Positions 13,339 to 63,019 of a stretch of DNA of 64,000 nt are shown here, piece after piece. Where the stretch lies: positions 77,471-141,470 of the forward strand of contig JAGOQU010000002.1 in NCBI GenBank assembly GCA_018063165.1, read 5' to 3'. The DNA is from Minisyncoccota bacterium (lineage in GTDB: Bacteria > Patescibacteriota > Minisyncoccia > Phycocordibacterales > UBA5272). The notes under the pieces are model-generated. The model worked only from the letters and a program-made list of their open reading frames with translations, made no database searches and was not told where the DNA came from. A program made the translations under genes and the position numbers. The number at the start of each line of letters is the position of its first letter. Within the stretch, counting starts at the first letter, position 1.

Positions 13339-13752
13339 ATGAAAAAACAAGACGCTTCGATGCCTAGTGTTCACATGGACTATCATCCTAAATTAGTTAA
13401 AGAGGGTGTTTTTATTCTTGAAGAAGAAGTGTGGAGTACTCAAAAGCGTATAGCACGTATTTATGGTAGAAGTATTCCTACAATAAACGATCATCTTAAG
13501 AAAATATATCAAGAAAAAGAACTCATGAAAGCTTTGAGTGAACGTATACTTATGGTTACTCAACAAGAGGGGAAGAAAAAGGTTGCGAGAAAAACATATG
13601 TGTATAATAGTGATATGGTTATTGCTATAGGTTTTCGTGTGAAAGGAGAGTGGGGTAAAGAGTTTCGTGTATGGGCACGTGAAGTGGTAAGAGCGAGTTA
13701 TGATCCAAGAGATCAGGTAAGACATCTTATAGGTAGTCACCCCTTAGGATAA
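13339..13752 (+). CDS. RhuM-family protein, N-terminal fragment (truncated)
   Basis: 137 aa. QKRIARIYGRSIPTINDHLKKIYQEKEL ... GFRVKGEWGKEFRVWAREVV matches the N-terminal region of RhuM-family proteins, which are about 330 aa full length. Its 3' end overlaps the convergent FAD-oxidase gene. Confidence 0.45.
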   Translation: MKKQDASMPSVHMDYHPKLVKEGVFILEEEVWSTQKRIARIYGRSIPTINDHLKKIYQEKELMKALSERILMVTQQEGKKKVARKTYVYNSDMVIAIGFRVKGEWGKEFRVWAREVVRASYDPRDQVRHLIGSHPLG

Positions 13753-21034: not shown

Positions 21035-21448
21035 ATGGCTAAGAAAATTACAAAATACGTTAAGGTTCAGATTGAAGCAGCAAAAGCTACTCCTGCTCCA
21101 CCACTTGGTCCTGCACTCGGACAGGCTGGTGTACAGATTGGTGATTTCGTTAATAAATTTAACGCTGCAACTCAAGGACAAACAGGAAGAATGTCAGTTA
21201 AGATTTATGTGTATGAAGATCGTACATACGACTTTGTTATTAAGACTCCTACTGCTACATCACTTGTTATGAAAGCTGCAAATGTTGCAAAAGGTAATTC
21301 AAAAGGAAAAGCTGGAACAATTTCAAAGGAAAAAATCCGCGAAATTGCAACACTTAAACTTAAAGACCTAACAGCTCATACTGTAGAACAGGGAATGAAG
21401 ATTATCGAAGGTACAGCTCGTTCAGCAGGAATCGCTGTTGTAGCATAA
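21035..21448 (+). CDS. rplK: 50S ribosomal protein L11
   Basis: 137 aa. PPLGPALGQAGVQIGDFVNKFN is the L11 signature. Confidence 0.9.
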   Translation: MAKKITKYVKVQIEAAKATPAPPLGPALGQAGVQIGDFVNKFNAATQGQTGRMSVKIYVYEDRTYDFVIKTPTATSLVMKAANVAKGNSKGKAGTISKEKIREIATLKLKDLTAHTVEQGMKIIEGTARSAGIAVVA

Positions 21449-21465
21449 CCCTCTATCTCTAGAAA

Positions 21466-21497
21466 CAAAAAACCGCATAGTTGCGGTTTTTTGTTTT
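21466..21497 (+). terminator. rho-independent terminator after rplK
   Basis: AAACCGCATAGTTGCGGTTTTTTGTTTT. Confidence 0.7.
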
Positions 21498-21563
21498 GCA
21501 GTGTAGGATTGTCATAGCCCTGGAAACAGGATTACTGTTATTTACAAAGAAAGAGATAGTTCT

Positions 21564-22676
21564 ATGCATAAAATATCTGGTGTGTTTAGCAAAGCAGATT
21601 TTGAGCGTTTGATTTGTTCTAGGCGAATTAAGACACTTAAAGGTTTCAAAGAGGACCATCTTAATCCTGCTTCTCTTGATATTACAACAACAGGAGAAGT
21701 TTTTCGTATTAACCGTCTACTCCAACCAAGTCAACTTGAAAATGAGACAGTTAGAAGTCTACTTTCAAAGATGGAAGCAGATCAAGTTCATGTTGGATCT
21801 GTTATGGAAGTTGGTGCTACATATTTAGCAAAAGCTAGTATAGATATTAACTTTCCTCCTGGTATGTATGGATATTTGAATGCAAAATCAAGCTGTGGAA
21901 GGAATTTTCTTTTCGTGAGATCTCTTGCTGACGGTATTCATGAATTTGATTCCGTTGATAGAAGAAATCATGGATATACAGGGGAATTGTGGCTTGTTAT
22001 CCAACCACTTGCTTTTCCTGTAATTCTTTCTGATAAAGAATGTTACAATCAACTTCGTGTTTTTGATGCTGATACTCGTTTTAGTAAAACTGATCTAGAA
22101 CAACTTCTTTGCGAAAGAGATATTTTATATAGGCGTAATCAGGAGCCATATAAACAAGGTGAGCTTTCTCTTTTTACTAATGATGGTTCTGTACTTTGTA
22201 CGTTAGATGCTTTACCAAAGAAACATGTTGGATATAAAGCAAAAAGTACAAATGTACCAATAGATCTTACAAAAAGAAAATCACTTAACCCTCATGATTT
22301 TTTCGATCCAGTGATTGCAGAATCTTTTGGTGAAGGGAAATATGATGGTTTTGTGCATGTTGAGGCTGGTCATCATTATTTACTTGCTACAAATGAGATG
22401 CTTAAAATTTCTGTTGACTATACAGCAGAATTAACAGCGCTTGACCCTCGTCTAGGTTTCTTTTTTACCCATTTTGCAGGTTTTTTTGATCCTGGCTTTT
22501 TTGGAACAGGAACGTTAGAAGTGTTTGCACCTCATAATACATTTCTTAGACACAAACAACCTCTTGCGCGCTTTGTTTTTGAGAAAATGAAAAATAAAGC
22601 ACCATCGTATGCAGATAATGGTAACTATAGTGGTCAAATCGAAACACAATTACCAAAACAGTTCGCTGATTGGTAG
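21564..22676 (+). CDS. dcd: 2'-deoxycytidine 5'-triphosphate deaminase, long (about 365 aa) form
   Basis: 370 aa. The C-terminal half (HFAGFFDPGFFGTGTLEVFAPHN) and AKSSCGRN align to Dcd motifs (GRSSLAR and DPGW.G...LE). The length matches the long-form Dcd family. Confidence 0.55.
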   Translation: MHKISGVFSKADFERLICSRRIKTLKGFKEDHLNPASLDITTTGEVFRINRLLQPSQLENETVRSLLSKMEADQVHVGSVMEVGATYLAKASIDINFPPGMYGYLNAKSSCGRNFLFVRSLADGIHEFDSVDRRNHGYTGELWLVIQPLAFPVILSDKECYNQLRVFDADTRFSKTDLEQLLCERDILYRRNQEPYKQGELSLFTNDGSVLCTLDALPKKHVGYKAKSTNVPIDLTKRKSLNPHDFFDPVIAESFGEGKYDGFVHVEAGHHYLLATNEMLKISVDYTAELTALDPRLGFFFTHFAGFFDPGFFGTGTLEVFAPHNTFLRHKQPLARFVFEKMKNKAPSYADNGNYSGQIETQLPKQFADW

Positions 22677-22680
22677 TATA

Positions 22681-22712
22681 AAAAAAACGGTCCTCGGACC
22701 GTTTTTTATTTT
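22681..22712 (+). terminator. rho-independent terminator
   Basis: AAAAAAACGGTCCTCGGACCGTTTTTTATTTT. Confidence 0.7.
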
Positions 22713-22724
22713 TGATATACTATA

Positions 22725-23147
22725 GTGATGAAACTTAAAATTAAAAAATTATACGAAAATACAAAATTACCAACACGAGCTCATCATGATGATGCTGGAA
22801 CTGATATGTATGCACAAGGTGATCACATTGTAGAACCTCACACAACTGTTGTAATTCCAACAGGTGTTGCTATGGAATTAGAAAAAGGATATGTGTCACT
22901 TATTTGGGATAAATCTTCAGTTGGATCAAAAGGTATTAAGACATTGGGTGGAGTGATTGATGCAGGGTATCGTGGGGAATATAAAATCATTGTTCATAAT
23001 TTGAATAACGAAGCATATACGTTTACACATGGAGATAAGGTTGCACAACTCCTCGTACAAAAAGTTGAATTTCCAGAACTTGAGGAGGTTGTTGAACTTA
23101 ATGATTCGACACGTGGAGAAGGGGGTTTTGGAAGTACAGGGAAGTAA
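22725..23147 (+). CDS. dut: dUTP diphosphatase
   Basis: 140 aa. AGTDMYA, GVIDAGYRGE and the C-terminal RGEGGFGSTG dUTPase motifs. Confidence 0.85.
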   Translation: MMKLKIKKLYENTKLPTRAHHDDAGTDMYAQGDHIVEPHTTVVIPTGVAMELEKGYVSLIWDKSSVGSKGIKTLGGVIDAGYRGEYKIIVHNLNNEAYTFTHGDKVAQLLVQKVEFPELEEVVELNDSTRGEGGFGSTGK

Positions 23148-23231
23148 CCTCTGCTATTTCTTATTGTTTTAAAGTGTGTAATAAAGAAAAATAAAAAAGC
23201 GATACGTGTACACGTATCGCTTTTGCTGTTT

Positions 23232-24182
23232 TTAAGTCAGAAGAGTCGCACCAATTTTTCCTTGATTCTTATAGTCAATGATTCGAATATCATCCATGGT
23301 AAAAGAGTCTATGTCTTTTATTTCTGGATTAAGCCAAAGTTTAGGTCCTTTGTTAGGAGTTCTTTCTAATTGTTTATTTACAGCTTTTAGATGTCCGTTT
23401 TTCCATACAGGTTTTTTTTCTGCATCAAGACCTGCAAGGTAAATATGACAGTCTTCAAGTGTAATAACAAGCTCCCCAGGAATCATTCCTACACACTGAG
23501 CAACCATGTGATTTAGCATTGCATAACTTGCAATATTGAAAGGTTCTCCAAGAAACATATCACATGACCGTTGATCCATTGAAGTATCAAGATACATTTT
23601 CTTATCGCGTCTATGGCTTGGTCTTACAAAGAATTGCATCTTCATATGGCACGGAGGTAAACACATGTCATCAAGTTCTCCGGGGTTCCATGCATTAACA
23701 ACATGATAACGCATGAAAGGGTCTTCTTTTAACTGTCGTATTACTTTTGCTAATTGATCAATTGAATTACCTTCTGTTGTTTTCCAATCTCTCCATTGTG
23801 CACCGTAAATACGACCGCAGTCTCCTTCGAATTGAGCTCTACCTTTTTTTGCAAAATTTAACTGATCTCCAGTCCACACATTTTTTGCATTAGAAGGTTT
23901 ACCCATTAACTCATTGAATTTTGCTATAGATAGTCTGCCTCCGGTTTCTTTACCTGCATCAAGTAACCAAAGAAGTTCTGCTTTAATAACTTCAAAAGCT
24001 GTAAACTTTGTAGTTATAAGAGGAAAGTTTTTTTGTAAATCAAAGCGCATTTGATGTGCAAAAATTGCAGTGGTAATACCATTGCGACCTTTTCGTCTTG
24101 TTCCTTCTCTTTTTATTTTTCTAAGTACCTCTAGATATTCATCTTCATTTGGGTTAATTCTCGGTATTAATGTAATCATCAT
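23232..24182 (-). CDS. thyA: thymidylate synthase (ThyA family)
   Basis: PPCHMKMQFFV and QRSCDMFLGEPFNIASYAMLNHMVAQ are near-identical to the E. coli ThyA active-site region. The start was moved to an internal ATG preceded by GGAGG, because the track ORF has a 25 aa N-terminal extension. Confidence 0.8.
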   Translation of the reverse strand: MMITLIPRINPNEDEYLEVLRKIKREGTRRKGRNGITTAIFAHQMRFDLQKNFPLITTKFTAFEVIKAELLWLLDAGKETGGRLSIAKFNELMGKPSNAKNVWTGDQLNFAKKGRAQFEGDCGRIYGAQWRDWKTTEGNSIDQLAKVIRQLKEDPFMRYHVVNAWNPGELDDMCLPPCHMKMQFFVRPSHRRDKKMYLDTSMDQRSCDMFLGEPFNIASYAMLNHMVAQCVGMIPGELVITLEDCHIYLAGLDAEKKPVWKNGHLKAVNKQLERTPNKGPKLWLNPEIKDIDSFTMDDIRIIDYKNQGKIGATLLT

Positions 24183-24354
24183 TTTTCCTCCAAAAAGTTT
24201 ATGTAAAGAACTGGTGTATACCAAACAAACTCTACATGTTTTTTGTCTTTGAAGCAACTCTATGTTTTATTTGTTATATTTTCTTTTTATTTTTAAAACT
24301 ATTGTGTTAGTATATGCTTCTAAACTATCGTTCTTTTACATATAAGGAGATGTG

Positions 24355-25050
24355 ATGAAAACTGGAAAAGTAGGAAAACGCACAAGGTTAATTTTAATAG
24401 AAGGAGATGACGTTTCTTCTAAAGAAAAACAAACAAAACTCTTAGTTAACCAGCTTCGAAAAGAAAAATACACAGTTGCAAATATTTCTTTTCCTTACTA
24501 CATACAAACATTTACAGAGTCTTTTAACGGAAAACCAGAAACCAGATTTTCACCATTTGATTATTCAGAGGTTTATAAAGATGAAGCAAAAACCTTTTGC
24601 ACTTCTAAAGGAGAAGATTTTGCATCTTGTTTAGAAGCTTTAATTAAAGAAAATGACATAGTTGTTTTTGATAGATATATTGAATCTAATTTACTTTTTT
24701 ATGGTTCTCAGATTTTAATGGATATTGATAAAATTAATTTTGCTCATTATCTGTTTAATGCTGAATATAAAATTAGCAAGATGCCAAAACTTTCTGATGT
24801 GGTGTATCTTTCTGTTCCTTGGAGTCTTATGCATAAAAGATTTTTATTAAAAAATCCTCATATAGATACTTCTTCTGAACAAGTAAAGAATGACATTGAA
24901 GCAATAAAAAAACAATATGAATCTGGGAATTTTTATTCTAAATTATTAGAATGGAAAATGGTTAGTTGCGTATCTGATTTTCGTGATCTTTCTGAAGAAG
25001 AGGTTCATAATCATATTATGGCTTTGTTAGGGTTTAGGTGCCATATTTAA
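24355..25050 (+). CDS. thymidylate kinase-like protein with degenerate P-loop
   Basis: LILIEGDDVSSKEKQ aligns to the Tmk P-loop (IEG.DGSGKTTQ) but reads GDDVSSKE. VVFDRYIESNLLFYGSQ matches the Tmk DRY motif. AAGGAG lies 5 nt upstream of the ATG. Confidence 0.5.
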   Translation: MKTGKVGKRTRLILIEGDDVSSKEKQTKLLVNQLRKEKYTVANISFPYYIQTFTESFNGKPETRFSPFDYSEVYKDEAKTFCTSKGEDFASCLEALIKENDIVVFDRYIESNLLFYGSQILMDIDKINFAHYLFNAEYKISKMPKLSDVVYLSVPWSLMHKRFLLKNPHIDTSSEQVKNDIEAIKKQYESGNFYSKLLEWKMVSCVSDFRDLSEEEVHNHIMALLGFRCHI

Positions 25051-25121
25051 TTTTTTTAAACCAATTTTACATAGTAAAATTGGTTTTTCTTTTTATTATT
25101 TTGAAAATAAGGTAGTATATA

Positions 25122-26825
25122 GTGATGAATGCTTATAATATAATAACGCAAGAAATAAAAAAAATAGTAGGTGAGGGTGTTGATTTTTCTGTTTCTATTT
25201 CAGAAGATTTTTCTCGAGGTGACTATTCAACAAATCTTGCTTTTGTTCTTGGTAAACAAAAAAGTATTACTCCGAATATGTGTGCTGAAGAACTTGTTCC
25301 AATTCTACAAGAAAAACTTATTGCTGTTGTAGAAAAAATAGAAGTTGCTGGACCTGGCTTTATTAATTTTTCTTTGAAGAAAGAAATTATAAGAGAAGAA
25401 ATTTTGAGATGTCAAAAATTAGAAACATTTACAACAAAATACACAGATAAAAAAGTTCTGGTTGAACACTCATCTCCAAATCTTTTTAAACCATTTAGTG
25501 TTGGTCTCCTTCTTAATCATATTGCTGGAGCATCACTTACCCATCTTATGAAAGCAGGGGGTGCAAAGGTTACAACAGTTTCATTCCCTTCAGATATTTC
25601 TATGGGTATTGCAAAAGCAGTGTACTCAATAAAAAAAGATGGTGGACTTTCTCAAGACATTTTTAATAAAAGTCAGGAAGAGGTTATTGCATATCTTGGC
25701 AGTGCATATACCCGAGGCGTCACATCATTTGATGAATCAGAGTCTGTACAAGGAGAAGTAAAAGAAATTGCAGAGAAACTCTATAGTGAAACACCAAGTG
25801 AAGAGTTCGATATTTTTGAAAAAGGGAAGAATATAAATGTTGCATATTTTGAACACATGCTTTCACTTCTTGGTTCACATTTTGACGGATTCATTTATGA
25901 AAGTGAAGCAGCTGTAGTTGGTAAAGAGATAGTACTTGCACGAGAGGACATATTTACTCATAGTGAAGGTGCTATTGTGTATATTCCAGACGAGGGGACA
26001 AAGGGTGTGCATACGGCAGTATTTATTAATAGTCAAAGGAATCCAACATATGAAGCAAAGGATCTTGGTCTCCTTCATATGAAATTTGAACGTTACACCC
26101 CGGACTATTCTTTTTTTGTTACCGATAATGAGCAAATCTCTCATTTTAATGTTGTGCTCGATGCTGCTTCAAAAATTGAAAAGAAATGGAAAGAGGTGAG
26201 CACTCATGTGTATCATGGTCGTATGACATTTAAGGGTCAGAAGATGTCGAGTAGACTTGGAGGCGTTCCTCTCGCACAAGAAATTTTGGATGTTGTTACA
26301 GACGAAGTAAAAGAAAGATCTGGTGAAAAAATAGATCATCTTACAGAAGAAGAAAAGAACGTCGTATACAAGCAGGTTGCGCTCGGAGCGCTTCGCTTCT
26401 CTATGCTCCGCTCGAAACTTGGTAGTTCAATTAATTTTGATCCAGAAACATCACTCTCATTTGAAGGAGATTCTGGTCCATATGTGCAGTACACCTATGC
26501 ACGAGGAGTATCACTTTTAGCAAAAGGAAAAGAATTAGGATTTTCACCATCGTATCATTCTGGAGAAGAAGTTACGATTCTTGAAAGAAAACTCATGCAG
26601 TGGGAAGGGGTTGCTTTGCGTGCCATAGAAGAAATAGCTCCTCAATATGTTGTAACTTATCTTTTTGAGCTTGCTCAGATGTTTAATAGTTTCTATGCAT
26701 CGACTCCAATTGTTGTAAAGGGTGATGATCTCTCAGAACATAGACTAGCTATTACAGAATCTGTAACGAAAGTGATTAAAAAAGCACTACACCTTCTCGC
26801 TGTTGAAGCACCAGAGAGAATGTAG
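25122..26825 (+). CDS. argS: arginine--tRNA ligase
   Basis: 567 aa with overall ArgRS architecture, a QKMSSR variant of KMSKS and a C-terminus ending APERM as in bacterial ArgRS. The HIGH position appears to read SVGL by eye. Confidence 0.75.
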   Translation: MMNAYNIITQEIKKIVGEGVDFSVSISEDFSRGDYSTNLAFVLGKQKSITPNMCAEELVPILQEKLIAVVEKIEVAGPGFINFSLKKEIIREEILRCQKLETFTTKYTDKKVLVEHSSPNLFKPFSVGLLLNHIAGASLTHLMKAGGAKVTTVSFPSDISMGIAKAVYSIKKDGGLSQDIFNKSQEEVIAYLGSAYTRGVTSFDESESVQGEVKEIAEKLYSETPSEEFDIFEKGKNINVAYFEHMLSLLGSHFDGFIYESEAAVVGKEIVLAREDIFTHSEGAIVYIPDEGTKGVHTAVFINSQRNPTYEAKDLGLLHMKFERYTPDYSFFVTDNEQISHFNVVLDAASKIEKKWKEVSTHVYHGRMTFKGQKMSSRLGGVPLAQEILDVVTDEVKERSGEKIDHLTEEEKNVVYKQVALGALRFSMLRSKLGSSINFDPETSLSFEGDSGPYVQYTYARGVSLLAKGKELGFSPSYHSGEEVTILERKLMQWEGVALRAIEEIAPQYVVTYLFELAQMFNSFYASTPIVVKGDDLSEHRLAITESVTKVIKKALHLLAVEAPERM

Positions 26826-28020
26826 ATCGTATAAGGATCCTTGAGAGTGGTTTTCTTCTGACGGATAAAGTGAATTATTATTGTTAATAAATACAATTAA
26901 TTTTCTATAAAAATGCTATTATTTAGTTATTAATTAAACTAAAAACTTGCATGAAAAATATTCTACTGAAATGGTTATTTATTTATTTGTCTCTTTTTCT
27001 TGGAACTTCTTCATCTTTTGCGATGGTGTGTACTGATCTTACAAAAACCCTCTCTAAAGGTTCAGAAAATAGTGAAGTATTGAAACTACAGCAATTCCTT
27101 TTTGATGGTGAATATTTAACTGCAAAACCAAATGGATATTTTGGAAATGGAACTGTTTCTGCGGTCAGGAAGTTTCAAAAAACAAATGGACTTTCACAAG
27201 TTGGTTTAGTTGGCCCTGGAACAAGGAATAAAATTAAAAGTTTAAGTTGCAGTAATAGTTCTAAAAATGAAACATTACTTATAAGTTTACCTCAAAATAA
27301 GAATAATATTCAAATTAAAGATAAGAAAATAACAGATAACTCTAAAATGATAACTGTATCAAAAGATTCTGATCTTATATACTTTCCTGTTCGTGAGCCT
27401 AGAGATAGTAACATAGATGGTGAAATAAAATCAATTGAAAATATTAAATATTATTTATTAGAGACATACAGAATGGAACCTTTTATTGTTTTTGAAGATT
27501 TCTTTACTCGTGCGATTGACTATAGGAAACTTACTCCTACAGGTGAAGCGTGTACAAGATTATTCGTAAGTAGTCAAAAAAGAGATTTTTATAAAGATAT
27601 CTCTTTATTAGATACAAAGAATTATCTTTTGAGTTTCCCAGAACTTAAAGCTCTAAGAGATATAAATCTTGAATATAAAAAGAACCCGAACAGTTTTAAT
27701 AAGCAACTTAAAGATAGTACACAAGATAGAGCTGAAAAATTCTTAAAAGAGAATGAACTAAAACTTAATGAAACATTTGATCAAAAGTATCTAGCGAGTA
27801 TTCGGTCTTCATATGAAAAATTTGCATCTAGTTATAATACGGATCTATTTAATTCTTGTAGGATTGATAAAAATGGACCACCCATAAAAGTAAATTTTGT
27901 TATTTCTAATAGAGATTTTGGCAGTATTCTTAATTTAAATACTCTTTTAAAGTATATTCTTGAAGATGGAATAATTTAGTTTTTTAAATCTTTAAAAAGT
28001 TTTTCTTCCTAGTTTCTTTA
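26826..28020 (+). mobile_element. putative integrated segment flanked by direct repeats of the argS 3' end (no integrase present)
   Basis: The 1.2 kb between argS and a 95 percent identical in-frame copy of its last 180 bp carries a single secreted peptidoglycan-binding protein gene. Confidence 0.35.
26951..27979 (+). CDS. secreted protein with peptidoglycan-binding (PG_binding_1-like) domain
   Basis: Signal peptide. LKLQQFL ... GYFGNGTVSAVRKFQKTNGLSQVGLVGPGT matches the PG_binding_1 repeat. Confidence 0.5.
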   Translation: MKNILLKWLFIYLSLFLGTSSSFAMVCTDLTKTLSKGSENSEVLKLQQFLFDGEYLTAKPNGYFGNGTVSAVRKFQKTNGLSQVGLVGPGTRNKIKSLSCSNSSKNETLLISLPQNKNNIQIKDKKITDNSKMITVSKDSDLIYFPVREPRDSNIDGEIKSIENIKYYLLETYRMEPFIVFEDFFTRAIDYRKLTPTGEACTRLFVSSQKRDFYKDISLLDTKNYLLSFPELKALRDINLEYKKNPNSFNKQLKDSTQDRAEKFLKENELKLNETFDQKYLASIRSSYEKFASSYNTDLFNSCRIDKNGPPIKVNFVISNRDFGSILNLNTLLKYILEDGII

Positions 28021-28021
28021 G

Positions 28022-28201
28022 TATGTTGTGACCTATCTTTTTGAGCTTGCTCAGATGTTTAATAGTTTCTATGCATCGACTCCAATTGTTGTAGAGGGTG
28101 ATGATCTCTCAGAACATAGACTAGCTATTACAGAATCAGTTACGAAGGTTATTAAAAAAGCACTATACCTTCTCGCTGTTGAAGCACCAGAGAGAATGTG
28201 A
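28022..28201 (+). pseudogene. duplicated 3' fragment of argS (last 59 codons plus stop), no start codon
   Basis: Near-identical to 26646..26825. It is in frame and ends ERM followed by TGA. Six of the eight codon differences are synonymous. Confidence 0.7.
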
Positions 28202-28216
28202 TTTCTTGGCTGAATT

Positions 28217-28353
28217 CCTGGCCAAGAAATCACTTCCAAGCGTAAGCGTTAGGAAGTAAATTTCTTGTCTTAATTTAGAGAAGTGTATTGCTAGTTTCCC
28301 TGGCCAAGAAATCACTTCCAAGCGTAAGCATTAGGAAGTAAATTTCTTGTCTT
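28217..28353 (+). repeat. two copies of a 54 bp hairpin-forming direct repeat (units 28217..28270 and 28309..28353)
   Basis: Unit CCTGGCCAAGAAATCACTTCCAAGCGTAAGCGTTAGGAAGTAAATTTCTTGTCTT contains an internal inverted repeat (AAGAAATCACTTCC / GGAAGTAAATTTCTT). An extra inverted repeat lies at 28200..28231. Confidence 0.6.
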
Positions 28354-28498
28354 GTCCTAATTTTGATGTTTTTTCTCTTGCACCATTATTATTTTCTGTT
28401 AGTATTAAGTAATAAGAGATACGTTGAAGGAATTAATCACTCCTGAGTATGGGAAGAACCTGACATCTCGTCACAAGTAGAACCCGAGTAAATGAGTT

Positions 28499-28538
28499 GG
28501 ATGGTATTTTTTGAAATGCATTTCAAAAAATACCATCC
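28499..28538 (+). promoter_or_regulatory. perfect 40 bp palindrome in the ileS leader
   Basis: GGATGGTATTTTTTGAAATG followed by its exact reverse complement CATTTCAAAAAATACCATCC. Confidence 0.6.
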
Positions 28539-28546
28539 AAAAAACA

Positions 28547-28560
28547 AGGTGGTACCACGA
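28547..28560 (+). promoter_or_regulatory. T-box-like sequence motif in the ileS leader (hypothetical)
   Basis: AAGGTGGTACCACG matches the T-box consensus AGGGUGGNACCGCG at 12 of 14 positions. It lies about 75 nt upstream of the ileS ATG. Confidence 0.3.
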
Positions 28561-28632
28561 CCAAACATCGTCCTTGGAAAAGAAATTAAATTCTTTTCTG
28601 TGGGCGATTTTTATTTTACTAAAAAACAAATC

Positions 28633-31600
28633 ATGAGCAATAATCAAACTAACACCCCAAAAACAATAAGTGAAAAAGAACAGGAGACACTGAAGTTCTG
28701 GCAAGAAAATGCTATTTTTGAAAAAACAATAACAACTCCTGCTAACGAAGAAGCGCGAGGAGATTTTTCATTTTATGACGGACCTCCGTTTGCAACAGGA
28801 CTTCCTCACTATGGACATATTCTTGCGGGTACTATAAAAGATACAATACCTCGATATCAAACAATGAAAGGGAACAGTGTGCGTCGTGTGTGGGGGTGGG
28901 ATTGTCATGGTCTACCAATTGAAAATTTGATTGAAAAGAAACTTGGTCTTACAAGTAAAAAAGATATTGAGGATTTTGGTATTGATAAGTTTAATAAAGA
29001 TGCTAACGATAGTGTTCTTACATACGAAGAGGAATGGAAAAAAGTTGTTCCACGTCTTGGTAGATGGGCTGACATGGATAGACCGTACAAAACAATGGAT
29101 GCAACATATACAGAAAGTATTTGGTGGGCATGGAAACATTTACACGAAAAAGGTTTGGTATACGAGGGGCATAAAATGATGCACATATGTCCACGTTGTG
29201 AGACAACCCTTGCTCAAAGTGAAGTTGGTATGGAATACACAGATATTACAGATTTATCTGTTACAGCTAAGTTTGAACTTGTTGATGAACCAGGGACATT
29301 TGTTCTTGCGTGGACTACTACACCTTGGACTCTTCCAGGTAATAGTGCTCTTGCTGTTAAAGGAGATGCTTCATATGTAGTGGTTGATATAGATGGTATG
29401 GAAGGAAAGTATATTCTTGCAGAAGAAAGAGTTGAACATGTTCTTAAAGATATGAAGTGTGAAGTTGTTAAAAAAATGAAAGGTGAAGATTTGGTAGGAA
29501 AAAAATATATACCACCATTCCCATATTTTAAAGATTCTGATATTGAGTATAAAGAAAATGCGTTCAAGATTTGGCATGCTGATTTTATTACATTAGATAC
29601 AGGTACAGGTATTGCTCATGAGGCTCCAGCATTTGGTGCTGAAGATATGGATCTTGCAAAGCTTCATTCTATTCCTGTTATAAAGCATGTAAAAATGGAT
29701 GGAACATTCATATCTACAGTTACTGATTTTGCTGGAATAAAAGTAAAAGCAAAAGATGATACACAGTCAGCAGATATAGAAATTATTAAATGGCTTGCTC
29801 ATCATAATGTACTTTTTGAAAAACATAAAATTATACATTCATACCCACTTTGTTGGCGCTGTAAAACGCCGTTACTCAACTATGCAACGTCATCGTGGTT
29901 CGTTGATGTTCCGAAGATAAAAGACAAGCTTCTTTCTGAGAATCAGAAGATTGGGTGGACACCTGCGCACACACGTGACGGGCGTTTCGGTAAATGGTTA
30001 GAAGGTGCTCGTGAATGGGCTGTTTCACGTAGTCGTTATTGGGGTGCACCACTTCCAGTTTGGAAAAATGATGATGGTGAAGCGATGATGATTGGCTCTC
30101 TTAAAGAATTAGCAGAACATACATCACAAAAACCAAAAAATACATATTATATAATGCGTCATGGTGAGTCTGTGAGTAATCAAGATGGTATTCTTGAAAC
30201 TAAAGGTGATCCAAATAATCATTTAACAGAAAAAGGAAAAGCACAAGTTATGGATTCTCTTGCTCTTATTAAGTCTCTAGGTATTGATGTTATAATTACA
30301 TCTCCTTTTGTGAGAACAAGAGAAACTGCTGCTATTGTGTCATCTTTTTTAGATATACCTGTAGAGACCGAAGATAGAATACATGAATATGATATGGGTG
30401 AATTTAGTGGGAAGAAGGCTACAGAATATATGGAATATTATGGTCATTCATATTTACGTTTTAATACTCGTCCAAAAGGCGGTGAAACTCATGAAGAGAT
30501 GATGAATAGATCAATGAGTGCAATTATGGATTTTGAGAATCGTTACGAAGGTAAAAATATACTTGTGGTTACTCATGGCGGACCAGCTCGTATGATGCTT
30601 ATTGGTGGAGAACTTTACACAGAAGAAGAAGCTCTTCTTGATGAACGTGCAGTAATAACAACTCTGTATCTTGGTAATGCTGAAATACGAAAACTTAATT
30701 TAAAAATTGTACCACGTGATGAAACTGGTGCTGTTAATCTTCATAGACCATATATTGATAATGTAACGCTTTCAGTAAATGATAAAATATACACACGTAT
30801 ATTAGACGTATTTGATTGTTGGTTTGAGTCAGGGTCTATGCCGTTTGCTTCCATCCACTATCCGTTTGAAAATAAAAAAATATTTGATAAAAATTATCCA
30901 GCTGATTTTATTGCCGAAGGGGTTGATCAGACGCGTGGGTGGTTTTATTCACTTATTAATTTAGGTGTTGGTCTTTTTGATAAAGCACCATATAAACACG
31001 TTATAGTTAATGGTCATATATTGGCATCATCAGGTTTAAAACTTTCAAAGAGTGAAAAGAATTATACAGACCCAATGGAGCTTGTAGAAAAATATGGAGC
31101 AGATGCAATGAGATACGCTCTTATAGCTAGTCCTGCTGTTAAAGGTGAAAACGTTCAGTTTGATGATGAAAATGTTTCTGAGATATATAAGAAATGTATA
31201 TCTAGACTTGAGAATGTTGTGACTCTATATGAAATGAATAAACCAGAGAAGACTCAACCTTTGAATACTTCAGAAAATATTCTTGATAGTTGGATGATAT
31301 CCCGCATTAATGAACTTGTAACAGAATCAACAAAAGGATATGAAGAGTATATGCTTGAAGATGCTACAAGAGGTATAGCAGAAATTATTGATGATATATC
31401 TGTGTGGTATACAAGAAGATCAAGAGATCGTTTAAAAGGGGATGAGGGTGAGATGTCTAAGAAAGAAGCTTATCAAACACTAAAATATACGTTACTAACT
31501 CTTTCAAAAGTGATGGCACCAGTGATGCCTTTCATATCAGAAAGAATATATAAACAGTGTGATGGCGAAAAAGAATCTGTTCATTTAGAATCATGGCCGA

Positions 31601-32082
31601 TATCAGATAATATAGATTATGAAATAATTAAAGATATGAAGATTGTACGAGAACTTGTTTCCCTTGGTCTAATGAAAAGAACTGAAACAAAAATAAATGT
31701 AAAGCAACCACTTCTTTCTGTTTCATTTAAGAAAGTTGTTTCTGGTAAGTACAATAATCTTATTAAAGATGAGTTAAATGTAAAAGATGTTTTCTATAAT
31801 GATTCACAAAAAGAAGATGTTGTTCTTGATACAACGATCACAGAAGAGTTACAGAAGGAGGGTGATATACGTAAACTTATTCGTGCTGTTCAAGACATGA
31901 GAAAAGCAAAAGGACTTAAACAGGTAGACGAAATTAATCTTGTTGTTTCTTCATTAACATCTTTAGGGGATATGTCACTTCTTGTATCAACGTGTAAAAT
32001 AAAAGAAATTAAAGAAGATGTTAGTATTAAAGATAATAGTATTGAATTATCCTCAGGTGTTTTATGTTTTGTATTAGAGTAA
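28633..32082 (+). CDS. ileS: isoleucine--tRNA ligase (type 2-like) with an inserted histidine-phosphatase (PGAM-like) domain
   Basis: HYGH (HIGH) and KLSKS (KMSKS), the editing-domain region, WAVSRSRYWGAPLPVW and DCWFESGSMP. The start was placed at MSNNQTNTPKT because the track ORF extends upstream through the palindrome. Residues encoded by about 30139..30714 carry RHGESVSN and VVTHGG, characteristic of the histidine phosphatase superfamily. Confidence 0.85.
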   Translation: MSNNQTNTPKTISEKEQETLKFWQENAIFEKTITTPANEEARGDFSFYDGPPFATGLPHYGHILAGTIKDTIPRYQTMKGNSVRRVWGWDCHGLPIENLIEKKLGLTSKKDIEDFGIDKFNKDANDSVLTYEEEWKKVVPRLGRWADMDRPYKTMDATYTESIWWAWKHLHEKGLVYEGHKMMHICPRCETTLAQSEVGMEYTDITDLSVTAKFELVDEPGTFVLAWTTTPWTLPGNSALAVKGDASYVVVDIDGMEGKYILAEERVEHVLKDMKCEVVKKMKGEDLVGKKYIPPFPYFKDSDIEYKENAFKIWHADFITLDTGTGIAHEAPAFGAEDMDLAKLHSIPVIKHVKMDGTFISTVTDFAGIKVKAKDDTQSADIEIIKWLAHHNVLFEKHKIIHSYPLCWRCKTPLLNYATSSWFVDVPKIKDKLLSENQKIGWTPAHTRDGRFGKWLEGAREWAVSRSRYWGAPLPVWKNDDGEAMMIGSLKELAEHTSQKPKNTYYIMRHGESVSNQDGILETKGDPNNHLTEKGKAQVMDSLALIKSLGIDVIITSPFVRTRETAAIVSSFLDIPVETEDRIHEYDMGEFSGKKATEYMEYYGHSYLRFNTRPKGGETHEEMMNRSMSAIMDFENRYEGKNILVVTHGGPARMMLIGGELYTEEEALLDERAVITTLYLGNAEIRKLNLKIVPRDETGAVNLHRPYIDNVTLSVNDKIYTRILDVFDCWFESGSMPFASIHYPFENKKIFDKNYPADFIAEGVDQTRGWFYSLINLGVGLFDKAPYKHVIVNGHILASSGLKLSKSEKNYTDPMELVEKYGADAMRYALIASPAVKGENVQFDDENVSEIYKKCISRLENVVTLYEMNKPEKTQPLNTSENILDSWMISRINELVTESTKGYEEYMLEDATRGIAEIIDDISVWYTRRSRDRLKGDEGEMSKKEAYQTLKYTLLTLSKVMAPVMPFISERIYKQCDGEKESVHLESWPISDNIDYEIIKDMKIVRELVSLGLMKRTETKINVKQPLLSVSFKKVVSGKYNNLIKDELNVKDVFYNDSQKEDVVLDTTITEELQKEGDIRKLIRAVQDMRKAKGLKQVDEINLVVSSLTSLGDMSLLVSTCKIKEIKEDVSIKDNSIELSSGVLCFVLE

Positions 32083-50070: not shown

Positions 50071-50152
50071 TTTAGTAATAAAAAGAAAGAACGATGGCAT
50101 GCTCATTTCATTTAAAGTGGAAGGTTGGTACATTGAAATGTGAGTAGAAATT

Positions 50153-50235
50153 CGGGCACATGCTTGACCAGAATTTGAGAAGTTAAAAATACTTTCGGAG
50201 TGTAGTATTGGGTTTAGTGAGTGGTTGAAGAGGGG
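50153..50235 (+). repeat. copy A of an approximately 83 bp dispersed repeat
   Basis: About 85 percent identical to 51912..51993. Shared core CGGGCACA...CCAGAATTTGAGAAGTTAAA...ATTGGGTTTAGTGA.TGGTTGAA. Confidence 0.6.
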
Positions 50236-50247
50236 TATAAAGTTCAA

Positions 50248-51405
50248 TTAGAGACCGTTTCTTTGTTTGGATGTATGTAATAATGCCCCATTCTTTAATA
50301 TATCAGCAATTTTTTGAGCTTTATCTAGAGGTTGTCCAGGAATTAAAATTCCATTAAATAAGAAACCGCCTTGCCCTGTTTGTGCTTGCTGTGAAGCATT
50401 TGTTATTTTCACATTAGAAATTCCTAGTACTCTATCAATGATACCTTGCTCAATCGTAACATCTTGAATCGTGTTGTAAGGTGCATGTTTTTCTTGTCTA
50501 GAAATAATACCAGATTTGAGATATATATATTCTGGTGTAAATTTAAAAGAGAATGTTTTTTTCCAAAAAAAGGTGTAAATATTTTTAAATATAAAAAGAA
50601 TAAAGAAAATAAGAGAAATAATCAAAGTGTTTACTTGTATTTGAAATTTGTTCGCAACAGAGAATGAGCTTTCTCCTGTAGAAAAAAGAACATAACATAC
50701 GAGTAGTGTGTAAAAAAAACTCCACATGATACTACCTAACATTCTTGCGATTATCCAATTACCAGAAATTGGATACGTTTTTATTGAAACTTCTTCATTA
50801 ATATTAAAGGTTTCTGATTTATTTTTTGTTTGTTCATTTGATGTTGTTGAAGATTTATTCATTTCCAATGAGTAGTAGTTGTTACTCCTTTCTTTTATTT
50901 TTTGTAAAAATGTATTTTTTAAACGTTCTGCTGTTTCTGCATCAACTCCATCAATATGTGCCTCGATTCCAGAATTGGCGGTTGCACTTGCAATGTGAAC
51001 ATCATATAACCCAATAACCCTGTCTATAATATCTTGATCAACATATACATCTTGAATTTTTTGATATTGTACATGTATTTCTGTTGGAGAAAAAATACCT
51101 TTTTTAATTGTAATAAAATCAGAGTCCGTATCATAGAAATAATATTTTATATAAGCTTTTATGTAAATAGCTTCGAAAATCATTAGTGAAATGAACATAG
51201 TTAAGTAAATAGAGATTCCTACAGTAACTAAAGATTCTGAACTATTTAATTGAGTATTACTTAATATGTAAACAACAAAAATAATTAAAGAAAGAAATGC
51301 TGAAAGTAGACTAATTGAAACAGCTTCTTCAAGAAACTTCTTCCAGAATTTTCTTGGATTAAGTGGGTTGTTAATCTGAAAGTTGCTTTTAATTGAGTTT
51401 GACAT
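50248..51405 (-). CDS. membrane protein with two bacterial PH (bPH_2/DUF304, YdbS/YdbT-like) domains
   Basis: Two repeats of the pattern KKGIFSPTEIHVQYQKIQDVYVDQDIIDRVIGLYDVHI and KSGIISRQEKHAPYNTIQDVTIEQGIIDRVLGISNVKI, each following transmembrane helices. Confidence 0.55.
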   Translation of the reverse strand: MSNSIKSNFQINNPLNPRKFWKKFLEEAVSISLLSAFLSLIIFVVYILSNTQLNSSESLVTVGISIYLTMFISLMIFEAIYIKAYIKYYFYDTDSDFITIKKGIFSPTEIHVQYQKIQDVYVDQDIIDRVIGLYDVHIASATANSGIEAHIDGVDAETAERLKNTFLQKIKERSNNYYSLEMNKSSTTSNEQTKNKSETFNINEEVSIKTYPISGNWIIARMLGSIMWSFFYTLLVCYVLFSTGESSFSVANKFQIQVNTLIISLIFFILFIFKNIYTFFWKKTFSFKFTPEYIYLKSGIISRQEKHAPYNTIQDVTIEQGIIDRVLGISNVKITNASQQAQTGQGGFLFNGILIPGQPLDKAQKIADILKNGALLHTSKQRNGL

Positions 51406-51850: not shown

Positions 51851-51907
51851 TCTACAGAAATAAATTAAACCGCATCAATTGATGCGGTTTAATTATTTCT
51901 GTGGAGA
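51851..51907. repeat. long imperfect inverted repeat with perfect 24 bp palindromic core
   Basis: TCTACAGAAATAAATTAAACCGCATCAATTGATGCGGTTTAATTATTTCTGTGGAGA. The core AAACCGCATCAATTGATGCGGTTT is a perfect palindrome. Confidence 0.6.
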
Positions 51908-51911
51908 TAAA

Positions 51912-51993
51912 CGGGCACACGTCGAACCAGAATTTGAGAAGTTAAAGATAGTATCAGAGTATATTATTGGGTTTAGTGATTGGTTGAAAAAAG
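51912..51993 (+). repeat. copy B of the approximately 83 bp dispersed repeat
   Basis: See copy A. Both copies lie just 3' of minus-strand genes, at 50248 and 52017. Confidence 0.6.
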
Positions 51994-52016: not shown

Positions 52017-52994
52017 TTATTTAATTCTAATCATCCTTCCGTTTCCTGGAATTGGATTTCCTTCTTTATCTTTTAAGGTGCCCCACTCATCCCATTTGTT
52101 TGCAATTTCTGGTGGAATTAATTTCGCCCATTTTTTCCAATCTTTATCACCATCAGGGGTTACTACATAGACACGTTTAAGCTCATCTGCTTCCCAGCCA
52201 TTCTTTTTAACAAGATTTCCTGTATGTCCTTTCTTTCCATTGATTTTATTTAAAATCATTAATGTTTTATCCCAACGTTTAACATCTACATTTTTTAGAA
52301 AACGTGCCAACTGACCGCCTTGCATAAAAGGTACATTTTCAAACGAATTTAAATTTTTCCAAATAGTTTCCTTTGCTTCTGAAATAGTTAAACCACTTAG
52401 CCCCTTCACACTGTTTTGAAGTTGTATCCCAACAGATTGAGTCATTTTGTCATTTAAAAATTCATCCACAGTGTTATAGCTAAGAGCTAAAGAAAACCAA
52501 CACAAAAGATTATCTTTTCTATACGTATCTTCATTTTGATTTTCAGCAAGAATATCTGTATCATAACTATATTCAGTATCCCTCTTTTCGACCTTAACAG
52601 AAACAAATGTTGGCAGTCCTCCAATTTTGGAATTGTACCCTACAGCATTTTTTAAATAATTAATCATACCAGCACCAGAATCAGCAACAAAAACACCAGC
52701 ACCATCGGGGGTATTATCATTACCAATATTTTTTATATCGAGTTTTTCTTTTGGTTTTAGACCGTTAGCAAGAATACTATCAATAATTCCCCCTCCTTCT
52801 CCAGTTAAAGTTCCATGCCAGTAATATTCGGCTTTCGGCATTCTTTCTAAGTTAATCTGAGGAGTTTCGATGTTTTTAGTTTCAGGTGATTCGACGAGGT
52901 ATTTTTCATCCTGTTCTTTAGGGGAGAGCTTTTGTGCTTGTTTTTTATCCCTAGTTTCTGTTTTATTTTCTGGTAATGATTCTAGTGTTGTCAT
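52017..52994 (-). CDS. PARP/Tpt1 (KptA)-fold ADP-ribosyltransferase-like protein
   Basis: YYWHGTLTGEGGGIIDSILANGLKPKE and GAGVFVADSGAGMINY align to the PARP catalytic signature (LLWHGS..N..GIL..GL and G.GIYFAD...S..Y). They also align to Tpt1/KptA (LYHGT ... GL ... HYVHLSAD). A low-complexity N-terminus and about 150 aa of C-terminal extension of unknown function. Confidence 0.45.
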   Translation of the reverse strand: MTTLESLPENKTETRDKKQAQKLSPKEQDEKYLVESPETKNIETPQINLERMPKAEYYWHGTLTGEGGGIIDSILANGLKPKEKLDIKNIGNDNTPDGAGVFVADSGAGMINYLKNAVGYNSKIGGLPTFVSVKVEKRDTEYSYDTDILAENQNEDTYRKDNLLCWFSLALSYNTVDEFLNDKMTQSVGIQLQNSVKGLSGLTISEAKETIWKNLNSFENVPFMQGGQLARFLKNVDVKRWDKTLMILNKINGKKGHTGNLVKKNGWEADELKRVYVVTPDGDKDWKKWAKLIPPEIANKWDEWGTLKDKEGNPIPGNGRMIRIK

Positions 52995-56841: not shown

Positions 56842-57000
56842 TACGCACTTCTCCTTATAGTTAGACTTTTTTGAAAGATATTAAATACACCTTTCAAAAT
56901 ATATAGTACTCTTTTAGGCTTTTTTGTAAAGTGCTCACAATATAAAAAGCACACTGTCATTTCATGGTGAATATGATATAGGTATATTTTATATACAAAG

Positions 57001-57073
57001 TGCGCCCACCAGGACTCGAACCTGGGACCAGTCGTGTATAAGACGACGGCTCTACCAACTGAGCTATAGGCGC
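57001..57073 (-). tRNA. tRNA-Ile (anticodon UAU)
   Basis: Manual fold of the minus strand. Acceptor GCGCCUA / UGGGCGC, D-arm GCUC-AGUUGGUA-GAGC, anticodon stem GUCGU / ACGAC with loop CUUAUAC (U33, A37, anticodon UAU), variable loop UGGUC, T-arm CCAGG-UUCGAGU-CCUGG, discriminator A. No encoded CCA. Confidence 0.75.
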
Positions 57074-61036: not shown

Positions 61037-63019
61037 ATGTCAGATGGTGAACATCAAAAAATTACATATCTAGGAAAGATTGATTATCGTGATAAACAGG
61101 TAACTTTTGGTATTAAAGAAAACGACAGAACTAAGCATACCTATATCATAGGTAAATCAGGTATGGGTAAATCAACACTTCTTGAAAATTTAATTATTCA
61201 AGATATTACTGGTGGAGAAGGTGTATGTGTTATTGATCCTCATGGGGCATTAGCAGAAACAATACTTCATTATATTCCAGAATCTCGCATTAAAGATGTT
61301 GTTTATTTTGCTCCTTTTGATGGAGATTTTCCTATGGGTCTTAATATGCTAGAAAAAGTGTCAGCAGAAAAAAGATACTTGCTAGCAAATGGTATGATGT
61401 CTGCGTTTAAGAAAATTTTTACCGACGGTGATGGTAAGGGGACATTTTCTGCACGTATGGAATATGTTCTTAATAACATTATTCTTGCACTTCTTGAAAA
61501 TGAAGGTCAGACACTTCTCGGTGTTAACAGAATGCTTTTTGATAAAGAGTATAGAAAATTTATTGTGAGTAATGTAACAGACCCAACAGTAAAAGATTTT
61601 TGGGTAAATGAATATGCTAATTATACAGACAAAACTGCTCAAGAACTTGCTCCTTCAATACAAAATAAAATAGGTCAATTTGTGTCTAATCCACTTATTA
61701 GAAATATTATCGGTCAAAAGAAAACATCCTTTGATATACGAAAGATAATGGATGAGAAAAAGATTTTTATAGCTAATCTTTCAAAAGGGAAAGTTGGCGA
61801 AGGAAATGCAAATCTTCTTGGTTCTCTTCTTATTACAAAAATATATTTAGCTGCGATGTCACGCGCTGATGTTGACGTGTATGAAGCAAAGAATTTACCA
61901 CCGTGTTATTTTTATGTGGACGAGTTTCAAAACTTTGCCAATGAATCTTTTGCAAGTATTTTGTCAGAAGCTCGTAAGTATAAACTTGCTCTTACTGTTG
62001 CTCATCAATATATAGAACAAATGACAGATGAAGTGAGATCTGCTGTTTTTGGAAACGTTGGCACTATGATTACATTTCGCATTGGTGCAACAGATGCAGA
62101 GATTTTTGAAAAAGAATTTGCTCCTAAATTTGTCCTTGATGATTTTGTGAATCTTTCCGCATATCAAATTTATTTACGTCTTATGATTGACGGTCAGGGT
62201 TCACAACCATTTTCCGCTAGAACACTTCCGTCAACAGAAAGACCTGTACATTCGTATGAACAAGCTGTCATAGCTTATTCACGTTTAGAACATGCAAAGC
62301 AAAAGTTTTTGGTTGAGGATGAGATTATGGAATTTTATAAACCTGTACCAAAAGTAGAAAAAATAAAAACAGAGATACCTTCTCCTGATGTAAAGTTTTT
62401 AAAAGTGAATGAATATAAAAATGAACAACCTTCATATCCATCAAAACGTAATGACAGCTTTAAACGTTTTGATGCTAAGAAAAATAATGAGGAAAGAAGA
62501 TATCAGACATCTCCAATCACAAGATATGATTCTCCTGAAAGAAAAGATGAGAAGCAGAATATTGCTCATTCTTCTGTAGATACTGCACAAGCCGTTGTTG
62601 CTAATTCTGAGCCAACCACAGTTGTTCATAAAGAAAACAATATAGAAAAAAATAACAGAAGAGAAGAACAAAAATATATTCCTGAAATAGAAAAAAAAGA
62701 AATTAAAATTGAAAGTGTGTTTGATACAGTAAAACAACCTGTTTATAAAAAAGAATATGTTGACAAAACAGTAGAACAAAAACCTACTCCAGTTTTTGAC
62801 GATAAGCCAGCAATGTCTCTTAAAGAAGCTCTAGAAAAAGCACTTAAAGATCAAAAGCCAATAACAGAAAATGTGTACCAAAAGAAAGAGGTGACAGATC
62901 AAGAAGATATAAACAATGGTGAGGTAAAAGATAGAAAAATAAAAGAAGACATGCAAGTTTCTTTACCTAAGAAGAAAGAAGTACCAGAAGATGTTCTTCG
63001 AAAATTGATAGAAGAATAA
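61037..63019 (+). CDS. type IV secretion coupling-protein-like (TraG/TraD/VirD4 family) P-loop ATPase with K/E-rich C-terminal tail
   Basis: Walker A IIGKSGMGKST, DPHG, Walker B YFYVDEFQNF and ARKYKLALTVAHQYIEQM match the T4CP patterns (hhhhDE and the A.QS..QL sensor). No N-terminal transmembrane domain. The last 230 aa are low-complexity. Confidence 0.5.
   Translation: MSDGEHQKITYLGKIDYRDKQVTFGIKENDRTKHTYIIGKSGMGKSTLLENLIIQDITGGEGVCVIDPHGALAETILHYIPESRIKDVVYFAPFDGDFPMGLNMLEKVSAEKRYLLANGMMSAFKKIFTDGDGKGTFSARMEYVLNNIILALLENEGQTLLGVNRMLFDKEYRKFIVSNVTDPTVKDFWVNEYANYTDKTAQELAPSIQNKIGQFVSNPLIRNIIGQKKTSFDIRKIMDEKKIFIANLSKGKVGEGNANLLGSLLITKIYLAAMSRADVDVYEAKNLPPCYFYVDEFQNFANESFASILSEARKYKLALTVAHQYIEQMTDEVRSAVFGNVGTMITFRIGATDAEIFEKEFAPKFVLDDFVNLSAYQIYLRLMIDGQGSQPFSARTLPSTERPVHSYEQAVIAYSRLEHAKQKFLVEDEIMEFYKPVPKVEKIKTEIPSPDVKFLKVNEYKNEQPSYPSKRNDSFKRFDAKKNNEERRYQTSPITRYDSPERKDEKQNIAHSSVDTAQAVVANSEPTTVVHKENNIEKNNRREEQKYIPEIEKKEIKIESVFDTVKQPVYKKEYVDKTVEQKPTPVFDDKPAMSLKEALEKALKDQKPITENVYQKKEVTDQEDINNGEVKDRKIKEDMQVSLPKKKEVPEDVLRKLIEE

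Follow-up and report, generated by a model that had tools for sequence, protein, structure and literature searches.

Islands and prophages that integrate through a tyrosine integrase at the 3′ ends of tRNA, tmRNA, or protein-coding genes are recognized by a replacement tail on the target gene, a direct repeat at the far end, and an empty site with a single copy of the tail. Accessory genes also turn over at chromosomal hotspots flanked by core genes, which Oliveira et al. 2017, Nat Commun, are said to have described. Decayed remnants of integrative and conjugative or integrative and mobilizable elements (ICEs and IMEs) that keep attL and attR and have lost the integration and transfer genes form a described class, the cis-mobilizable elements or CIMEs (PMC5704250), and homology-facilitated illegitimate recombination (HFIR) and Campbell-type integration of transforming DNA are documented in Acinetobacter, Streptococcus pneumoniae, and Pseudomonas stutzeri (PMC6382021). 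Here we describe a locus that shares features with each of these: the 3′ end of argS, the gene for arginyl-tRNA synthetase (ArgRS), in a 64-kb stretch of one uncultivated Paceibacteria genome (contig JAGOQU010000002.1). We refer to the whole stretch as the window and count positions from its first base; an integrase elsewhere in the genome would lie outside this view. Within the window, 1.2 kb of unique DNA with a single cargo gene separates an intact argS from a second copy of the argS tail, and a close relative has the same site without the insert. We give about an even chance to the reading that this is a scar of homology-anchored recombination, either Campbell-type or one-sided, at a variable spot between argS and ileS.

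Two copies of the argS tail and an empty site

The intact argS lies at 25125..26825 (+), encodes 566 aa from its ATG (Pfam PF03485, PF00750, PF05746), and has a product 100% identical to NCBI MBP6948693.1 and MBP9866778.1, from a Candidatus Pacebacteria/Paceibacterota metagenome-assembled genome (MAG). Codon numbers below refer to the 567-codon frame that starts at a GTG. The tail now used by argS (copy 1; 26646..26823, +; codons 509–567, stop TAG) is repeated downstream as copy 2 (28020..28201, +; 59 codons followed by TGA), which carries an NCBI annotation as a 57-aa hypothetical protein. An ungapped comparison of 26646–26823 with 28022–28199, at an offset of 1376, found 170 of 178 positions equal (95.5%), and a repeat finder set the extent at 26639–26823 and 28015–28199 (185 nt, 94%), by far the longest repeat within the window. 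The repeat covers the last 59 argS codons and the first base of the stop codon, and the likeness ceases at the second base of the stop: copy 1 ends ERM-TAG and copy 2, also in frame, ends ERM-TGA. A repeat of about 95% in this frame, with a stop after ERM, had been the starting point of the original prediction, which was made from the sequence alone, and it was confirmed in full. Copy 2 by itself matches positions 62–117 of the 117-position DALR_1 model (E=6e-15), and the argS C-terminus used as a tblastn query recovered it at E=5e-34, that is, not by chance. Moreover, argS, the cargo gene, and the copy 2 open reading frame (ORF) have consecutive accessions in two NCBI assemblies (MBP6948691-93 and MBP9866778-80), so this arrangement was assembled twice.

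The comparison that the original prediction had proposed, with a related genome lacking the insertion, was provided by contig L011 (Logan SRR12762274), whose ArgRS (P0123) is the only other full-length member of the window ArgRS cluster. L011 is 97% identical to the window over 5.4 kb up to the argS end and 95% identical downstream, and it has the order argS, stop TGA, hairpins, T-box leader, and ileS, without the insert. Relative to L011 the window has 1376 extra bases, consisting of 1196 unique bases and the second tail. L011 is an empty site, so the window holds a real insertion of about 1.2 kb. Distant relatives have neither the cargo gene nor the duplication, from which it follows that the insertion is derived in the window lineage.

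A three-way alignment with L011 left a sole novel joint (28014..28025, +), where insert DNA meets argS at codon 508/509. The homology of copy 2 to the empty site begins at 28020, an in-frame TAG (28019-28021) lies immediately 5′ of copy 2, and no more than 2 nt (AG) of microhomology are visible, with no donor found.

The two tails as alleles of argS

Eight codons differ between the copies. As originally predicted, six differences are synonymous, all at third positions (511, 512, 547, 548, 550, 551), and two are replacements (K533E and H557Y). The ratio of nonsynonymous to synonymous differences (pN/pS) is 0.10, and the neutral probability of at least six of eight being synonymous is P=0.003, a bias that cannot separate an element-borne tail from allele replacement by ordinary homologous recombination. 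Aligned together, copy 1, copy 2, and L011 represent three alleles. Copy 2 equals L011 at 26645, 26654, 26657, 26718 (E), and 26790 (Y), at the stop codon, and everywhere downstream; copy 1 equals L011 in a 13-nt patch (26762-26774) in which copy 2 has four private changes; and the L011 tail has five private changes of its own. All four changes private to copy 2 are synonymous, and three of them match the states of more distant relatives. At the two replaced sites, the E of copy 2 is found in 16 of 17 relatives, versus K in copy 1, and its Y is found in most, versus H in copy 1. Because of the synonymous bias and the exclusively synonymous private changes, copy 2 is not decaying. On this sequence evidence it appears to be no drifting duplicate, and both tails seem to come from functional argS alleles ∼5% apart, in agreement with the suggestion that each had served as a functional gene end in a different lineage.

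Directly after copy 2 are twin hairpins and a U-rich stretch (28200..28257, +; minimum free energy −33.3 kcal/mol, z=−4.55), a structure resembling a native argS terminator. None of 200 shuffled sequences was as stable, while a consensus terminator scan made no call at this position. No stable structure was found 3′ of copy 1 (z=+0.56), and in L011 the twin-hairpin sequence is directly 3′ of the argS stop. Since the native TGA stop and terminator remain with copy 2, copy 2 is the displaced resident tail. The core of the earlier proposal, in which incoming DNA with a replacement tail keeps the gene intact, therefore holds, with the downstream copy being the old tail.

These observations bear on the idea that the repeat arose in situ, by transposon target-site duplication or replication slippage followed by drift, or that it is an assembly artifact joining the argS ends of two strains. 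Direct repeats do flank the insert, and mixed-strain MAGs can be chimeric. However, 178 nt is far above the usual target-site duplication, neither a transposase nor inverted repeats accompany it, and the spare copy differs only by synonymous changes of ancestral type (P=0.003), contrary to drift. As for an artifact, the joint at 28019/28020 sets non-argS DNA against codon 509, which no strain's intact gene could supply; both NCBI assemblies have the three genes side by side; and a similar orphan tail was found in another lineage (contig L115, below). We therefore consider this family of explanations very improbable.

Divergence along the locus

Nucleotide divergence between the window and L011 changes abruptly along the locus. 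Across 21385-25585 (dcd, dut, thyA, tmk, and argS codons 1–153) ∼1% of nucleotides differ, with a proportion of synonymous differences (pS) of 0.00–0.09. Across 25585-26645 (argS codons 154–507) 7%–12% differ, and pS rises to 0.36, nearing the 0.5 seen against the genus-level relative L001. Values are lower again in copy 1 (5.6%, pS 0.12), in copy 2 (5.1%, pS 0.17), and in the first 1.4 kb of ileS (1.5%–3.5%, pS 0.08). The diverged tract (25585..26657, +; Fisher P=1.5e-39 versus upstream) ends 12–70 nt inside copy 1, the drop being located between 26657 and 26718, on either side of a 60-nt identical block (26658-26717). Among distant relatives the tail evolves no slower than the rest of argS, and the drop is thus a real breakpoint. 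Of the two crossovers that the original prediction had placed near 26645 and 28021, the right-hand joint could be fixed at 28019/28020; on the left, the divergence drop falls between 26657 and 26718.

The pattern shows one allele exchanged for another, within sharp bounds, in an essential gene (25585-26645), a clustering of homologous recombination breakpoints at the argS tail, and a locus that is mosaic between strains. The diverged tract and the mosaic tails adjoin the insert, as judged against one close relative. The divergence drop fits a crossover inside the repeat: the resident tail would then have been copy-1-like on the left and copy-2-like on the right, continuing the diverged tract, and the incoming tail copy-2-like on the left and copy-1-like on the right. 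A one-sided import, with all of copy 1 arriving together with the insert, or the import of a ready-made arrangement would be equally allowed by the data, and one close relative makes it impossible to polarize the alleles between recipient and donor strain. The deletion of an insert between the two copies was ruled out as the origin of L011, whose tail is copy-2-like, copy-1-like, and again copy-2-like and so forms no single left/right chimera.

Ready-made import would mean that the diverged argS segment, the insert, and the spare tail were acquired together through an ordinary double crossover between homologous core genes on either side, after the scar had formed in another lineage. A diverged tract (pS 0.36) immediately left of the insert, with low divergence on both sides, is what this would leave, and the interval is a variable spot across relatives. 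But the divergence falls inside copy 1 instead of running through, and the scenario merely shifts the question of origin, being compatible both with a recombination scar and with a decayed element. We consider it unlikely.

The inserted DNA and its cargo gene

The unique inserted DNA (26824..28019, +; 1196 nt, 25%–29% GC) is absent from L011. The upstream stretch of tmk and the argS 5′ portion is equally low in GC, and the 3′ two-thirds of argS and ileS are at ∼35%–42%. The only gene between the copies (26951..27979, +) encodes a protein of 342 aa with a PF01471 PG_binding_1 domain at residues 40–94 (E=1.4e-10) and, as judged by eye, a hydrophobic leader at its N-terminus. The single secreted peptidoglycan-binding gene read from the sequence by the original prediction is therefore present, its secretion leader resting on inspection by eye. 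Endolysin matches in PHROG are confined to the PG_binding_1 domain. The C-terminal ∼240 aa had no meaningful match besides itself among 1.84 billion representatives and appear to be essentially an orphan sequence, and the AlphaFold2 (AF2) model of the protein is poor (predicted local distance difference test, pLDDT, 54), particularly outside the PG-binding domain. The best full-length homologues, 43% and 37% identical, occur together on one contig of another Paceibacteria genome, where argS is not near and no integrase was found within 10 kb. The insert DNA itself had no match in any relative locus fetched, in viral contigs, or in phage records, and its termini lack inverted repeats.

Since the cargo gene sits between argS and the native terminator, it is plausibly transcribed by read-through. 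Copy 2 is then probably just part of the 3′ untranslated region of the cargo gene, and the public 57-aa "hypothetical protein" is a displaced argS tail rather than a gene.

The argS–ileS interval in relatives

The gene order dcd-dut-(thymidylate genes)-argS-[variable]-ileS-recO is kept in relatives with ArgRS 75%–84% identical to ours. Their argS–ileS intervals contain 0, 1, 3, or 5 unrelated genes, and this differing gene content indicates that the interval turns over; a second argS tail was found in none of them. Scanning GTDB representatives with an ArgRS alignment gave 80 Paceibacteria loci. Adding the closer relatives gave 84 related loci in which the argS 3′ end is complete, and within the fetched flanks none (0/84) had a second copy of its own argS C-terminus, while the window copy, serving as positive control, was found at E=5e-34. 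Hence argS does not commonly serve as an attachment site in this class. A search of GTDB representative contigs with the window ArgRS as a single query returned nothing, and the species is apparently absent from the GTDB representatives. Searched against metagenomes, the 59-aa tail gave only distant ArgRS at 35%–45% identity among the matches listed.

A protein search with the 59-aa tail, through a word index, did yield one candidate, P0185, on contig L115 (JGI 3300045384, Ga0490027_039127; 1015 nt). This contig has the last ∼79 argS codons in its interior, in a fragment 95% identical to the argS of the L006 lineage, with 11 nucleotide and 2 amino acid differences, so that the L115 tail, too, seems to be an allele and not a decayed copy. 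Unrelated DNA lies on its 5′ side, with a minus-strand ORF that the joint cuts, and the tail stands directly 5′ of a T-box leader and the ileS start. The cut is at codon ∼488, versus 509 in the window, and junction positions thus vary between events. From these sequences, displaced argS tails just 5′ of ileS appear to recur in another lineage with different breakpoints. The differing cut points and the truncated ORF are better accounted for by illegitimate or homologous recombination than by a fixed att core.

The possibility that a spare tail is kept as a promoter for ileS was ruled out: such a tail is missing from relatives that carry other genes in the argS–ileS interval, and a promoter-like site in the intergenic DNA (28363-28392) is outside the spare tail.

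We noted a second variable spot just upstream of argS (23232-25050), seen also in L001, L004, L006, and L010. It holds thyX in L001 and L004; an opposite-strand thyA with tmk in the window, L011, and L010 (in L010 with DHFR in addition); and a larger block of thyA, DHFR, SHMT, deoxyribosyltransferase, and tmk in L006. These gene differences imply that close lineages have exchanged one route of thymidylate synthesis for another.

Search for mobile-element machinery

The original prediction had interpreted the locus as site-specific integration into the end of a housekeeping gene, while observing that no integrase was present. The latter statement was borne out: neither the cargo protein nor a single one of the 57 ORFs listed for the window at 120 aa or more (overlapping antisense frames aside) had a Pfam match to a recombinase or transposase family, and the 1.2-kb insert contains no pseudogene-sized remnants. 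The cargo protein had no match in IMG/VR viral contigs, and neither the insert nor the cargo had a DNA or protein match in phage records. A tail match in viral contig L012, which is high in GC and actinophage-like, was dismissed as spurious. An element with argS specificity was found neither in viral contigs, phage records, and the 84 argS loci nor around the cargo homologues, in a clade that is thinly sampled. The suggested search for the insert or cargo next to an integrase was likewise negative in the relatives' loci, viral contigs, and phage records.

The segment has some hallmarks of an integrative element, in that direct repeats of the argS 3′ end bound the insert, argS is intact, and L011 has a site with a single tail. 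It has no site-specific recombinase gene within its bounds, and no shared crossover position was seen among independent insertions (0/84; codon ∼488 in L115 against 509 here, on one 1-kb contig). A transposon is not indicated either, with no transposase, no terminal inverted repeats, and a duplication of 178 nt that is 4.5% diverged. Nor is an integron cassette, as the window has no integrase and the repeat is coding sequence and not an imperfect palindrome.

Elsewhere in the window, a homologue of TrwB/TraG-like type IV coupling proteins near the window end (61037-63019, +; E=2e-9) and a short RhuM-family fragment (13339-13752, +) may be vestiges of mobile or conjugative DNA; each is >12 kb from the argS site.

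Site-specific integration is thus left without positive evidence, and the lack of a recombinase, the 0/84 recurrence, the variable cut point, the truncated ORF at L115, and the mosaic alleles all go against it. A decayed site-specific element nevertheless stays live because only 64 kb are visible and the architecture is classic. Under this hypothesis an integrase-encoding island or prophage would have targeted the argS 3′ end, supplied a new tail from its attP, and later suffered deletions, leaving a CIME-like remnant; alternatively, a cassette would have been mobilized in trans. The architecture is matched in each part, from the intact gene with a replaced tail through the cargo and the displaced tail to the empty site in a sister strain. 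The similarity ends at the stop codon, a crossover within the repeat would account for the divergence break inside copy 1, and the tail in use has K where 16/17 relatives have E, as might befall a tail unexpressed on an element. CIMEs, moreover, offer a precedent for the loss of integration genes between retained att sites. On the other hand, neither the insert nor the window yielded a recombinase, the 1.2 kb contain no pseudogene-sized remnants, no kin turned up among IMG/VR contigs or phage records, no second tail was found in the 84 loci, and the nearest cargo homologues are away from argS with no integrase within 10 kb. The orphan tail of L115 has another cut point and abuts a truncated ORF. 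Finally, a deletion that spared just one intact gene and both att sites would be a demanding coincidence. We regard a decayed element as possible but clearly less probable than a homology-anchored scar.

Neighboring features

The hairpin region after copy 2 has undergone an 82-nt tandem duplication (28217..28353, +; 55-nt cores at 28217-28271 and 28299-28353, 98% identical) and is single-copy in L011. It is followed by a T-box-like leader of ileS (28415..28578, +; Rfam RF00230, 38.8 bits, E=1.5e-6, under the gathering score), with a GGUGGUACCACG motif and a short stem I, that is conserved in L011, L006, and L115; the L011 leader has 40 extra nt in the specifier region. This leader marks the right-hand edge of the variable spot, the ileS ATG being at 28633, and the regulation of ileS by a T-box may deserve attention in a Paceibacteria genome. 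The ileS gene (28633-32082, +) has a His_Phos_1 domain inserted in the synthetase core (residues 553–703 of a 1196-aa ORF, E=7e-35), as do the isoleucyl-tRNA synthetases (IleRS) of L001, L006, L010, and the P0006 contig. The sole tRNA gene in the window, tRNA-Ile with anticodon TAT, is at 57000-57073 (−). A further direct repeat, 89 nt and 81% identical, occupies 50141-50229 and 51900-51988, each copy just downstream of a minus-strand gene, one for a bPH_2-domain membrane protein (50248-51405) and one without a family (52017-52994).

Discussion

The feature described here is real and belongs to a known general kind, being a fairly ordinary scar of recombination. In the mechanism that we favor, DNA from a related strain would have brought an argS tail, its stop codon, and one accessory gene, and the last ∼180 nt of argS would have served as the homologous segment for recombination with the resident chromosome. 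The route may have been a single (Campbell-type) crossover of a circularized fragment; alternatively, homology may have anchored the recombination on one side only, with the joint at 28019/28020 being illegitimate. Either would yield an intact argS with a wholly or partly foreign tail, the cargo gene, and the displaced resident tail on the native terminator. We infer that the recombination was of the RecA type and not integrase-mediated. The cargo gene would be read through from argS with transcription ending at the old argS hairpins, and copy 2 would probably be an untranslated relic. Homologous recombination between the 178-nt direct repeats could also excise the insert precisely and so regenerate an intact argS.

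Several points weigh against this account. A duplicated gene tail with the target gene restored is what textbooks describe for integration by an integrase, and the integrase could lie elsewhere in the genome, beyond the 64 kb visible, or could have been deleted. The similarity stops exactly at the stop codon, as expected of a selected, element-borne replacement tail. The donor was not found, and just 2 nt of microhomology are visible at the proposed illegitimate joint. Allele counts in 178 nt are small, and the placement of the crossover is weakly significant (∼P=0.01, estimated from counts). Lastly, L115 is a single 1-kb metagenome contig that could be chimeric.

How the locus departs from the described systems is also informative. 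Unlike tyrosine-integrase islands, it has no integrase in the insert or the 64 kb, its cargo is one gene in 1.2 kb, and its repeat, at 178 nt, is long; no second argS tail turned up among 84 relatives, and the L115 case is cut at another codon. With CIMEs it shares an integrase-less segment bounded by repeats of a gene 3′ end, but it has no decayed mobility genes and falls far below described CIMEs in size, and a cognate argS-specific ICE or IME was not found. HFIR and Campbell-type integration have in common with it a homologous anchor (here ∼180 nt) beside heterologous DNA and varying junctions; a joint apparently without homology and a diverged homologous tract contiguous with the insert would be further likenesses, and no element-encoded enzyme is needed. 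Reported laboratory products, however, usually delete recipient DNA, and the duplication of the anchor at argS differs in this respect. With turnover hotspots the locus shares conserved neighbors (argS and ileS), 0, 1, 3, or 5 genes between them, and a sharp recombination tract in a flanking core gene. Such hotspots normally leave no duplicated core-gene tail, and the scar is the particular feature here.

Little is documented about mobile elements or about how horizontal transfer works in Paceibacteria, a group of the Candidate Phyla Radiation (CPR), and the locus offers a clean case of recent gene gain in such a genome, with a filled and an empty site to compare. For the mining of MAGs for integrative elements, it indicates that gene-tail duplications should not automatically score as att sites. 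If the integrase-free reading is true, host recombination alone can slot accessory genes beside essential genes in reduced genomes, and the 178-nt repeats could also remove such genes precisely. A wider proposition, which we offer as rather doubtful, is that single accessory genes routinely come and go in Paceibacteria, and perhaps in other CPR bacteria that have small genomes and scavenge DNA, by way of the tails of essential genes and without any enzyme of a mobile element. The incoming tail would rebuild the essential gene, the leftover direct repeat would later permit scar-free loss, and the process would recur at the argS–ileS interval.

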